From a virus: a DNA stretch of 19,476 nucleotides. The stretch lies in the UHGV virus genome UHGV-0127163. One strand, given 5' to 3'. The position numbers and the translations under genes are program-made. The notes beneath the pieces are model-generated. The model was not told where the DNA came from. It made no database searches and worked only from the letters and a program-made list of their open reading frames with translations. This document shows positions 17,103-19,476 of this stretch, one piece after another. Numbering within the stretch: position 1 is the stretch's first letter; each line of letters opens with the position of its first letter.

Positions 17103-17618
17103 ATGAGAATTACACCACCCCATCTGCAGCCAGTTTTATCCAGGGTTAAACGTTTTGTTGAACGAATGCCGGAAGGCGCAACACTGACCCAGATATCACA
17201 GAAAGTGCAGGCGTACAGTCTACTGAATAAAAGGGATAAGGAGATACTCATTGGCATTATCCGCGACAGTGGACTTCTGGTCGTTGCGAATGATGGAAGA
17301 ACTACAACGTTACATCATCCTAAATTTGGACATCAGGCAGTAAATAGTGAAATACCAGTAAAAACAGAGGAACCCGTTGTGATTAAAAAGACCGTTACTC
17401 CGGATGAATTACGCAGGCATGCTGAGGAGCTGATCAGGGCTGCGGAAGAAGCAGAGAAGAAATTTAATGATCGTGCGGAAATTAAAAAGCAACTGGATCC
17501 TCTGAAACTGGAAATCCTCCAGGCGTATGGAATGGCAAGTCGTAAATTTGATGAGTTTGTTGATGCTATGGCGGATATGGGGAAAGCGGTACAGAAACTG
17601 AAACAGATTGTGCTGTGA
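17103..17618 (+). CDS. Hypothetical phage protein (171 aa)
   Basis: GGAGG SD before ATG 17103; no domain recognised. Confidence 0.55.
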   Translation: MRITPPHLQPVLSRVKRFVERMPEGATLTQISQKVQAYSLLNKRDKEILIGIIRDSGLLVVANDGRTTTLHHPKFGHQAVNSEIPVKTEEPVVIKKTVTPDELRRHAEELIRAAEEAEKKFNDRAEIKKQLDPLKLEILQAYGMASRKFDEFVDAMADMGKAVQKLKQIVL

Positions 17619-17627
17619 GGTTCTACG

Positions 17628-18617
17628 TTGAGAGCACTACTGACCCCTGAAATTGCCCCGCGTATGGGGATCGTATTGTTCAGGCCAGGTTCAGAGCTGA
17701 TGCCCCTGTTTATGCAGGGGCGTGTCCTGCTGGAGCCTGAGCCGGAGCGTTATTCATCTTTCGCCAGTGGTGCCGTTCCGGCGGCATCACAACCGCTGGC
17801 GGATGATCCTGCCGTTCGGGCCGTGTTCCGCAATGAGGCGGTGATCCGTCGTGCTGGTGGCGTGGAATGCCTTGAGAGCTGGTTACTTCGTGAAAAGGGC
17901 TGTCAGTGGCCTCATTCCGACTGGCACAGCGAGAACATGACCACAATGCGGCACGCGCCAGGCGCAATCCGTCTGTGCTGGCACTGTGACAATCTCCTCC
18001 GTGACCAGTTCACGGAACGGCTGGAATCAATGGCAACGGATAACTGTGCCCGCTGGGTGTTGTCTGTTGTGCGCCGTGATCTTGGTTTTGATGACAGTCA
18101 CGTTGTGACAATGCCGGAACTGTGCTGGTGGCTGGTTCGTAATGACCTGGCGGATGCCTTACCGGAAAGTGCAGCCCGTAAGGTACTGAGATTACCGAAG
18201 ACGGTTGTGCCGTCTGTCACCCGGGAAAGTGACCTTGTGCCTTCGGTTCCCGCCACCAGTATTATCCGGGATAAAGCGAAAAAGGTGCTGGCGCTGAAAG
18301 TGGATCCGGAGTCGCCGGAGTCTTTTATGTTACGCCCAAAACGTCGCCGCTGGGTTAATGAAAAGTACACGCGCTGGGTTAAGACGCAGCCGTGCGCATG
18401 TTGTGGAAAACCTGCTGATGATCCCCACCACCTGATAGGTCACGGTCAGGGCGGAATGGGTACAAAAGCGCATGACCTCTTTGTGTTGCCTTTGTGCAGA
18501 AAGCATCACGACGAGCTGCATGCGGATACCGTGGCATTTGAAGAGAAGTATGGCTCCCAGCTGGAGCTGATATTTCGTTTTATCGATCGCGCGCTGGCGA
18601 TTGGTGTGCTGTCCTGA
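17628..18617 (+). CDS. DUF968-like phage protein with C-terminal Cys/His cluster
   Basis: C-terminus …CACCGKPADDPHHLIGHGQGGMGTKAHDLFVLPLCRKHHDELH… (Zn-binding-like); TTG 17628 preceded by GAGG SD; located just upstream of Q. Confidence 0.55.
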   Translation: MRALLTPEIAPRMGIVLFRPGSELMPLFMQGRVLLEPEPERYSSFASGAVPAASQPLADDPAVRAVFRNEAVIRRAGGVECLESWLLREKGCQWPHSDWHSENMTTMRHAPGAIRLCWHCDNLLRDQFTERLESMATDNCARWVLSVVRRDLGFDDSHVVTMPELCWWLVRNDLADALPESAARKVLRLPKTVVPSVTRESDLVPSVPATSIIRDKAKKVLALKVDPESPESFMLRPKRRRWVNEKYTRWVKTQPCACCGKPADDPHHLIGHGQGGMGTKAHDLFVLPLCRKHHDELHADTVAFEEKYGSQLELIFRFIDRALAIGVLS

Positions 18618-18634
18618 TTTTGTGGAGAAAGTTG

Positions 18635-19027
18635 ATGCGTGATATTCAGATGGTTCTCGAACGCTGGGGGGCATGGGCGGCAAGTGGTAACGCCGGGGTG
18701 GACTATTCTCCGATAGCTGCTGGATTTAAAGGCCTTTTACCATCCACCGCTAAACCTCGCCCGGCCTGCAGCGATGATGACGGCCTTATCATCGAAAACT
18801 GCCTTACGCGCCTGAAGAAGAAAAAACCGGACGAGTATTCGCTGCTGGTAGCTCATTATCTGCTGCGCATATCAAAAAGGCAGATTGCCAGAACAAGAAA
18901 GAAGAGCGAAAAGGCAATACGAATTGAGATGCAGATTGCTGAAGGATTTATTGACGGATGTCTGTCGATGCTGGGTGTAAGGCTGGAGATGGACGACTGG
19001 CTGCCCAAAAAAGTAAAAAATGATTAG
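18635..19027 (+). CDS. Q: Late-gene antiterminator Q-like protein
   Basis: 130 aa from ATG 18635 (GGAGA SD); N-terminus MRDIQMVLERWGAWAA… resembles Q proteins of the phage-82/933W group as recalled; immediately followed by a promoter-proximal terminator (tR' arrangement). Confidence 0.6.
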   Translation: MRDIQMVLERWGAWAASGNAGVDYSPIAAGFKGLLPSTAKPRPACSDDDGLIIENCLTRLKKKKPDEYSLLVAHYLLRISKRQIARTRKKSEKAIRIEMQIAEGFIDGCLSMLGVRLEMDDWLPKKVKND

Positions 19028-19087
19028 CGCGGTCCGCAAAAAGTATGTCAGTATGTTAAGAGTGGTTACTACGCCACACAGCTTAAA

Positions 19088-19109
19088 CCCGCCGCCTGGC
19101 GGGTTTTTT
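19088..19109 (+). terminator. tR'-like Rho-independent terminator downstream of Q
   Basis: CCCGCC-gcct-GGCGGG followed by TTTTTT (19104-19109). Confidence 0.7.
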
Positions 19110-19228
19110 ATGACTGAAATCGCATCAGTACAGTAAACGTGCTGGTGGTGAATACCTGTCTTTCAGCTTGCTGGCTTTTTAGACAAGAGTTATTGGTATG
19201 TCACGTTAACCGGAAAAGGGAAAAAGAC

Positions 19229-19426
19229 ATGCTAAAACAGCAGGATATGACAGAAACCGCCAGAGTGGTGTTTAATGAATTAAGCGTCACCTACCCGGCG
19301 ACAGTCGGGGAGATTGCGCAGAATACTTACCTTTCACGCGAACGCTGCCAGTTAATACTGACCCAGCTGGTTATGGCGGGTCTGGCAGACTATCAGTTCG
19401 GTTGTTACAGACGCCTTCCGCAGTGA
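19229..19426 (+). CDS. Small hypothetical protein (65 aa), possible winged-helix fold, downstream of tR'
   Basis: ATG 19229 (MLKQQDMTETARVVFNELSVTYPATVGEIAQNTYLSRERCQLILTQLVMAGLADYQFGCYRRLPQ); the ORF-track start at 19139 is less likely. Weak SD. Followed by its own terminator. Confidence 0.45.
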   Translation: MLKQQDMTETARVVFNELSVTYPATVGEIAQNTYLSRERCQLILTQLVMAGLADYQFGCYRRLPQ

Positions 19427-19436
19427 AGGCTTTTTT
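19413..19436 (+). terminator. Rho-independent terminator after the small post-Q gene
   Basis: GCCTTC-cgcagt-GAAGGC followed by TTTTTT (19431-19436); stem overlaps the stop codon. Confidence 0.6.
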
Positions 19437-19476
19437 ATTTGTGGTAAATGGGCGGCTGGTGGGTGTGGTGGTTGTT

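Follow-up and report, generated by a model that had tools for sequence, protein, structure and literature searches.

A small winged-helix gene downstream of Q in a lambdoid phage genome is the orphaned upstream member of a conserved adenine methylase cassette

Introduction

The controller (C) proteins of restriction-modification systems are small DNA binders whose genes precede the DNA-modification or restriction genes that they serve to time, and they act as Xre-type helix-turn-helix dimers on palindromic C-boxes. The current study concerns a gene for a protein of 65 amino acids (aa), located downstream of the Q antiterminator gene in the virus genome UHGV-0127163 (positions 19229–19426, + strand), which invites comparison with these and several other regulatory systems. 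The whole stretch of DNA that was analyzed, 19,476 nucleotides (nt) in length, is referred to as the window. A first-pass annotation of this DNA had placed the small gene in the slot occupied by toxin cargo in Shiga toxin (Stx) phages. Our comparisons indicate that it is instead the upstream half of a two-gene unit, the other half of which, a DNA methyltransferase gene, is missing from the window.

Among the closest described systems is Com of bacteriophage Mu, a 62-aa protein that binds a hairpin beside a translation-inhibition structure and switches on Mom (PMC6483171). Com homologues also precede non-specific adenine methylases in Mu-like prophages, as in FluMu (hin1523), Pnm1 (nma1821), hia5 and B3 (ORF47/48) (PMC6483171, PMC3299994). 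A further relevant enzyme is M.EcoGII, a prophage-borne methyltransferase of 349 aa that produces non-specific N6-methyladenine, is silent in the lysogen and harmful when expressed, and has a close relative in phage 1720a-02; the cloned enzyme is active alone, both in vitro and in vivo (PMC5778455). Finally, StxS of Sp5/Sp15 and IsrK of Gifsy-1 exemplify the arrangement in which a constitutive promoter directly follows a Q gene and gives a short transcript running to an intrinsic terminator, with the downstream genes requiring read-through (PMC7547250, PMC4825925). In Gifsy-1, the short IsrK RNA follows antQ and ends at a leaky terminator, past which there is a small open reading frame (ORF) (PMC4825925); it provides a helpful parallel for the leader RNA discussed below.

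Results

The small gene is the upstream member of a conserved methylase cassette

In lambdoid prophages of Enterobacterales, the small gene is the upstream member of a conserved cassette, which consists, in order, of an intrinsic terminator, a conserved motif termed here the -60 motif, the small gene, a hairpin that includes its stop codon, a structured leader of ~150 nt, and a gene for a beta-class N6-adenine DNA methyltransferase of ~350 aa. The cassette was defined by a beta-class methyltransferase starting about 142–200 nt downstream of the small gene, past the conserved structured leader. A species-level scan, in which one genome represented each species, yielded 34 loci, and in 32 of these the methylase starts 151–200 nt past the small-protein match, even where protein identity falls to 41%; the two exceptions are a locus cut by a contig end and a partial ORF. 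Proteus, Providencia, Mangrovibacter, Mixta and Plesiomonas are all included in this set, at 41–63% protein identity, and the spacer from stop codon to methylase ATG measures 134–153 nt in all but two loci. The converse search, starting from the methylase, found the small gene upstream in every evaluable viral contig (76/76). Among 5426 complete E. coli genomes, the ORF region was present in 2364 and a contiguous ORF and methylase in 1910, while in Klebsiella, Salmonella, Citrobacter and Buttiauxella the small gene is likewise followed by a protein of roughly 350 aa matching the Pfam family N6_N4_Mtase. The cassette is found with several Q families upstream (PF06323, DUF1133/PF06530 and PF06530) and at varying distances from Q, with reverse-strand genes inserted between Q and the small ORF in some loci.

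The motifs of the methylase, DPPY at residue 35 and FMGSG at residue 310, identify it as beta-class and occur in the same order in M.EcoGII (PMC5778455). By its size of ~350 aa, its class, its location in prophages and its relative in phage 1720a-02, the partner in intact cassettes matches the published description of M.EcoGI/GII (PMC5778455), and we infer that it is an enzyme of this type, i.e., non-specific, toxic and silent in lysogens. Phage 1720a-02 itself encodes Q, the small ORF and then a methylase of 352 aa.

The enterobacterial cassette was also found in two contigs labelled "MAG Bacillus sp." (L017) and "Chryseobacterium sp." (L027), where the protein identity is 97% and 79%, respectively; this is likely due to contamination or mis-binning. 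In Klebsiella prophages (L007, 6427–7089), reverse-strand HicA/HicB genes are located directly after the methylase, at the position where E. coli Stx phages have transfer RNA (tRNA) genes and stx.

The cassette is truncated in the window

The window ends 50 nt past the small ORF. Comparison with intact cassettes identifies positions 19437–19466 (+ strand) as the truncated 5' end of the methylase leader, comprising its first 30 nt and ending inside the 5' arm of stem-loop 1; the window is identical to intact cassettes up to ...GGCGGCTGGTGGGTGT and then diverges. The point of truncation was located by aligning L001, a genome 99.9% identical to that of the window, with the Stx2a phage L002. Homology between the two extends to window position 19466 and resumes about 46 nt past the stx2B stop codon, with ~86 nt of unrelated filler joining the cut cassette to the post-stx segment. 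Positions 19467–19476 (+ strand) of the window are the start of this filler. The L002 segment 7870–10709, which holds the methylase, the tRNAs and stx2AB, is absent from L001, where the ORF is followed by a pseudogene, a nanS-p esterase gene and the lysis genes, and where no methylase, no tRNA and no annotated stx were found past the ORF. A tRNA search of the window was also negative, giving no sign of the ileZ-argN-argO tRNAs by which, along with stx, Stx-phage cargo is recognized between Q and the lysis genes. The post-stx2B segment of Stx2a phages occurs twice in L001 (9953–10179 and 10436–10665, at 71% and 86% identity), flanking the pseudogene.

The segment comprising Q, leader and ORF recurs in Stx2a phages at 91% identity, and in these phages the ORF is followed by the DNA methylase, three tRNAs and stx2AB. 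A comparable arrangement is seen in phiP27, where the small gene (ORF2) precedes ORF3, tRNAs and stx2e, and Stx2a_1447 and phage 1720a-02 share the small ORF together with the downstream methylase-tRNA-stx2 arrangement. Phages 933W and Sakai Sp5 carry stx but not the small ORF. Judging from these alignments, the position of the cassette in stx2 phages with the same Q type is between Q/pR' and the tRNA-stx cargo. The break in homology at 19466, together with the missing segment, places the cargo slot downstream of the ORF and shows that it is empty here. This has consequences for the reading proposed in the first-pass annotation, that the small gene is itself cargo filling the Q-to-lysis slot that holds stx in toxin phages. 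The gene does lie between Q and the lysis genes, but the same gene is found upstream of the methylase, the tRNAs and stx2 in Stx2a, Stx2e and other Stx phages, and homology to these phages runs through the gene without interruption and stops only at 19466, the cargo slot beginning beyond this point. We consider the cargo reading to be very improbable.

By the same comparison, the small gene of the window is an orphan, since past the cut at 19466 there is no methylase and nothing of the cargo segment, and the copy is probably a remnant. Between the orphan copies of the window and L004 there are one synonymous and three non-synonymous substitutions, too few for an estimate of selection.

The small ORF is a gene under strong purifying selection

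Strong selection to preserve the encoded protein shows the 65-aa ORF to be a real gene. Between genera, the ratio of non-synonymous to synonymous substitution rates (dN/dS) is 0.03–0.09, with saturated synonymous sites and a dN of about 0.1, and homologues form 332 clusters from E. coli, Shigella, Salmonella, Klebsiella, Citrobacter, Buttiauxella and others, most commonly 63–65 aa in length. Its small size and its position amid structured RNA elements might suggest a chance ORF, or conservation at the RNA level with no protein being made. However, neither would produce such dN/dS values or residues that remain invariant while their codons vary, nor would a confident predicted fold be expected, and we attach almost no weight to this explanation. 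A Shine-Dalgarno-like AAGGGA is read at 19216–19221 (+ strand), 8 nt before the ATG, where the aligned loci are purine-rich. N-terminal extensions present in database entries disagree in sequence and even in frame, which identifies ATG 19229 as the start and, along with annotated lengths of most often 63–64 aa among the homologues, led us to reject a longer reading of 95 aa from GTG 19139. Many such entries (P0008, P0021, P0110 and others; window 19139–19228) have 72–110-aa N-terminal extensions or C-terminal fusions and names such as "lipoprotein" or "DUF3927", apparently through errors in start-site assignment or frameshifts.

A profile search assigned the protein to PHROG 331, a phage family of unknown function (E 2.8e-37, residues 1–64). 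An exhaustive HMMER search recovered only 62 representatives, a small family restricted to Enterobacterales, and yielded no distant relatives of informative function. There was no match among NCBIfam models, only a marginal one in PADLOC, and nothing significant in a sequence search of the PDB. NCBI records label the protein a "TrmB family transcriptional regulator", an assignment we reject because its match to PF01978 (15.9 bits, E 0.012) is below the gathering threshold of 25.6; the label reflects a weak winged-helix resemblance alone.

The AlphaFold2 model consists of helices at residues 4–17, 26–33 and 37–49 and strands at 24–25, 53–56 and 59–62, with a predicted local distance difference test score (pLDDT) of 89 and a predicted template modeling score (pTM) of 0.74. 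This is the H1-strand-H2-H3 order plus a beta-hairpin wing of a winged helix-turn-helix, and the predicted product is accordingly described here as a small winged-helix protein. Foldseek returned TM-scores of 0.80–0.83 to IclR-type DNA-binding domains, as well as matches to OhrR, SelB and O-methyltransferase N-terminal domains, all of which are generic and weak (E 1e-3 to 1e-2). The recognition helix, RCQLILTQL (residues 39–47), is invariant across the family, whereas its codons vary freely, with all six Leu codons in use, which implies a fixed binding partner. There are only two Cys residues, C40 and C59, the latter of which is missing from the Proteus and Providencia proteins.

A structured leader precedes the methylase in intact cassettes

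A conserved, covarying leader of ~150 nt is located 5' of the methylase, as in L002 (7831–7981), L010 (5193–5342) and L035 (3199–3340). It is composed of stem-loop 1 and a long-range helix in which GGTCAC-AAG is paired with CTT-CTGATC, the latter at -12 to -2 relative to the methylase ATG. The ATG has no Shine-Dalgarno sequence, and the start region is buried in the leader helix. Helices 1–3 are 97–99% paired and exhibit AU-to-GC compensatory changes above shuffle and slide controls, and three divergent leaders, folded independently, adopt the same structure (z -2.4 to -3.8). A hand-drawn register for leader stem 2 proved to be wrong, with two pairs broken in 24 of 25 sequences, and our statements regarding the leader are based upon helices 1–3 alone. 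Rfam scans of the window end and an intact cassette gave only sub-threshold matches (STnc370, 27 bits against a threshold of 54; isrK, 16.5 against 50; P26, 18 against 36), indicating that neither contains a known RNA family.

The leader and the invariant helix both bear upon the possibility that the small protein is a protein partner of the methylase, serving either as an antitoxin-like inhibitor or as a targeting or dimerization subunit through protein-protein contact. The methylase is harmful when expressed (PMC5778455), the small gene comes first and the toxic enzyme second, as in toxin-antitoxin order, and the top Foldseek matches include the N-terminal winged-helix dimerization domains of S-adenosylmethionine-dependent methyltransferases. 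Yet M.EcoGII works without a partner (PMC5778455), a 150-nt structured spacer with an intervening terminator is atypical of toxin-antitoxin pairs, and the fold matches are weak and generic. Furthermore, the invariant part of the protein is a canonical recognition helix, while the remainder diverges to 41% identity. Overall, a role as a protein partner appears unlikely.

Conserved elements flank the small gene

Upstream of the small gene, alignment reveals an invariant cassette motif at 19167–19203 (+ strand), CTTGCTGG-N11-AAGAGTTATTGGTATGTCA, which reads as TTGCTG-17 nt-TATTGG. Its consensus is CTTGCTG-N11/12-(C)AGAGTTA-y-h-TGTrTGT, and it occurs at a fixed distance from the ATG in 21 of 21 aligned loci, including those of Proteus, Providencia and Plesiomonas. 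The core found in all genera is CTTGCTG-N11/12-CAGAGTTA..TGTrTGT. The motif has sigma-70-like spacing with a non-consensus -10 (G rather than T at -7), and the consensus scan calls no promoter there. It may be a weak or activator-dependent promoter, an operator or an element of the 5' untranslated region, and it may provide the small gene with an independent promoter.

This motif is central to another alternative, namely that the small gene is an independent moron-type regulator, transcribed from its own promoter at the -60 motif, expressed in the lysogen, and acting upon host or prophage genes regardless of the methylase. Like a moron, the gene is bracketed by terminators inside a late operon; TTGCTG-17-TAT(C/T)(T/G)G is invariant at its fixed distance from the ATG; and phages that lack the methylase, PhiR5_1 among them, retain an intact ORF. 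However, with no T at -7 and no promoter called by the consensus scan, a promoter of its own is a candidate rather than a convincing one, and the species-level sampling almost never found the gene away from the methylase. The fixed spacer length and the structured leader favor a functional unit, such that the gene is half of a conserved pair rather than a free-standing insertion. We judge a moron-type regulator to be improbable, to about the same degree as a protein partner.

At its 3' end, the gene overlaps a second intrinsic terminator (19413–19436, + strand), in which the hairpin GCCTTC-cgcagt-GAAGGC (19413–19430) holds the TGA stop codon in its loop and is followed by T6, as found by both the consensus scan and folding. 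In other genera, the hairpin is kept through compensatory changes across at least seven different stem sequences, while a strong T-run is confined to the clades of E. coli and E. mori/hormaechei. Given the location of the stop codon in the loop of this covarying hairpin (window and L007–L050), a terminating ribosome would cover the 5' arm, and termination at this site may depend upon translation of the ORF.

The late-control region upstream of the cassette

The Q antiterminator gene (18635–19027, + strand) encodes 130 aa from its ATG and matches PF06530 (E 2.8e-52) as well as PHROG 79 in a profile search; an alternative start, TTG at 18620, is possible. Its product is 48% identical to the Q protein of phage 933W. 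Just 5' of Q is a DUF968/HNH (ydfU-like) gene (17628–18617), which precedes Q in many loci. In phage 1720a-02, this gene is labelled "antitermination protein Q" (L051, 2529–3518), which is probably a mis-annotation.

A late promoter region, pR', is predicted at 19028–19060 (+ strand), with CAGTAT (19049–19054) or TATGTT (19052–19057) as -10 candidates. The region aligns with the annotated putative pR'/qut of 933W, where the -10 is TATCAT, whereas a consensus sigma-70 scan of 17500–19476 called no promoter, including in the pR' region. We place the transcript start near 19061 from the geometry of 933W, in which a start at Q stop +22 positions the end of the second terminator at +258, in keeping with the mapped StxS RNA (PMC7547250). 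The predicted product is a short pR' leader RNA of about 53–55 nt (19061–19115, + strand), composed of a conserved initial transcribed block, a small 5' hairpin and a terminator; the 56 nt from 19061 to 19116 fold at -23 kcal/mol (z -3.6). With the Q gene directly upstream, 19053–19109 is 79% identical to the pR'/qut/first-terminator block of 933W, a block that is invariant in six phages with differing DNA on its upstream side. Other phages with a PF06530-type Q share this homology to 933W just before the terminator. In several phages, one to three reverse-strand genes are located between Q and the pR'-leader block (L005, 889–2452; L012, 2799–4353; L015, 3053–4662), constituting a second insertion hotspot that sets Q 1–2 kb from its presumed promoter.

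The tR'-like intrinsic terminator at 19088–19115 (+ strand) consists of CCCGCC-gcct-GGCGGG (19088–19109) followed by TTTTTT (19110–19115). It was listed by our own scan for hairpins with T-runs and missed by the consensus terminator scan, probably because the stem can extend (AAACCCGCC/GGCGGGTTT) into the T-run and leave too few T residues in the tail. The consensus scan found four terminator-like sites against 2.0 +/- 1.2 expected, a count not above chance, and it is conservation across loci, rather than the number of sites, that makes the two terminators significant. Of 41 related loci, 37 have a hairpin and T-run ending 83–130 nt before the ORF ATG, irrespective of Q family and with stems that differ in sequence. 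Since the ORF lies downstream of a terminator and is preceded by no consensus promoter, Q-dependent expression of the small gene is plausible.

Two candidate RNA homologies were rejected. In its functional form, StxS comprises the last 74 nt of the 258-nt RNA and has no counterpart in the window, where the alignment to 933W is restricted to ~50 nt from the 5' end of the transcript and the end of its -10 (L006, 2193–2248, start near 2201). IsrK (Rfam RF01394) scored 16.5 bits (E 0.68) against its threshold of 50. In 933W (L006), the homologue of the tR' hairpin is located at 2227–2249, i.e., +27 to +49 of the 933W/Sp5 pR' transcript, and a second terminator at 2430–2458.

Discussion

The first-pass annotation was largely accurate in its description of the locus. 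The gene upstream is the Q antiterminator; the tR'-like terminator at 19088–19109 has its hairpin and T6, with equivalents in most related loci; the second terminator at 19413–19436 is listed by the consensus scan; the ORF is real by its dN/dS; a possible winged helix is supported by the predicted model and Foldseek; and no tRNAs are present in the window. Extension of the sequence, which it had recommended, was carried out with L001 and led to the lysis genes with neither tRNA nor stx, while the lack of conservation in related phages that it named as a refuting outcome is contradicted by the 332 homologue clusters and the pairing in all 76 evaluable viral contigs. It is only the interpretation of the site as the toxin slot that fails, as the gene co-occurs with stx2 located further downstream in Stx2a phages.

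The architecture of Q, pR' and tR' was already known, and the small gene is annotated in thousands of genomes. We found no published account of the invariant helix, the structured leader or the obligate pairing of gene and methylase, and literature searches on M.EcoGII and Stx methylomes turned up no mention of the small gene or the leader. The window differs from the M.EcoGI/GII prophages in that it lacks a methylase.

Of the explanations considered, the best overall is that the cassette includes a small protein dedicated to the regulation of a toxic methylase and that this protein has been orphaned in the window. We favor this reading with reasonable, though far from complete, confidence. 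The small protein would use its invariant recognition helix to bind a conserved nucleic acid element within the cassette, with the result that the methylase would be made only late after induction. Two modes of action can be envisaged. On DNA, the protein might behave like the controller protein of a restriction-modification system, acting at the -60 motif or the spacer. On RNA, it might act upon the leader in the manner of Mu Com and open the helix in which the start of the methylase is buried. Transcripts would originate at pR', and Q would be needed to pass both terminators. In the window, the small protein would lack its target gene.

In function, the cassette may resemble Com-Mom. There, a protein of ~60 aa is encoded just upstream of a late, host-toxic DNA-modification enzyme through which phage DNA escapes many restriction enzymes, and the translation start of the enzyme is buried in RNA structure (PMC6483171, PMC3299994). 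Intact cassettes have a corresponding layout, with the small gene, a leader in which -12 to -2 is paired, and then the methylase. There are also differences. Com is a CCCC zinc finger, whereas the small protein is a predicted winged helix with two Cys; as it has no N-terminal CCCC zinc finger, membership in the Mu Com family is rejected. The com and mom genes are close to each other, whereas here there is a gap of ~150 nt with a terminator-like hairpin, and the phages are lambdoid rather than Mu-like, with the window having no enzyme gene. C proteins provide a second parallel, as they too are small DNA-binding-type proteins encoded upstream of a DNA-modification gene. However, the small protein has a winged-helix rather than an Xre fold, no C-box was found, and it is paired with an orphan methylase of a late operon in phages, so membership in the C-protein class is likewise rejected.

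Several observations weigh against a dedicated regulator. Firstly, M.EcoGII is active alone, from which it follows that the small protein is not needed for catalysis. Secondly, a count of 6 basic against 6 acidic residues in the sequence gives the small protein a net charge of about 0, a low value for a DNA-binding protein, and the conserved upstream motif contains no palindrome, with no palindromic operator seen. Thirdly, the orphan ORF is still intact in the window and in phage PhiR5_1, which could mean a function independent of the methylase. Fourthly, the late promoter pR' was placed by homology to a promoter that is itself annotated as "putative" in 933W. In addition, the mapped StxS RNA of Sp5 is 258 nt long and extends to the second terminator (PMC7547250), which means that the first hairpin of 933W/Sp5, the homologue of 19088–19109, must be read through at least partially without Q. 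Lastly, we found no paper on the small protein itself.

A more specific version of the proposal is offered only tentatively, as we regard it as less likely to be correct than not in all of its details. Lambdoid phages, including many Stx phages, would possess a hitherto undescribed switch for a toxic, sequence-non-specific adenine methyltransferase, in which a winged-helix protein of 63–67 aa with an invariant recognition helix binds the leader or the -60 motif and frees the buried methylase start, which has no Shine-Dalgarno sequence. Such a switch would be an analogue of Com-Mom built from unrelated parts, and the window would encode the orphaned switch protein.

For the window, the outcome is mostly a correction, in that the small gene is what remains of a methylase cassette and does not take the place of toxin cargo. 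The broader interest lies in the cassette, which roughly one in three complete E. coli genomes carries, as do many Stx phages. Enzymes of the M.EcoGI/GII kind are widely used as tools, and to our knowledge there has been no explanation so far for their silence in the native host. The combination of a protein with an invariant helix and a covarying leader provides a testable model of how phages may silence a toxic, restriction-evading methylase up to the lytic cycle. Furthermore, in some Stx phages the cassette is located on the transcript that carries stx2, and it could consequently affect toxin expression.

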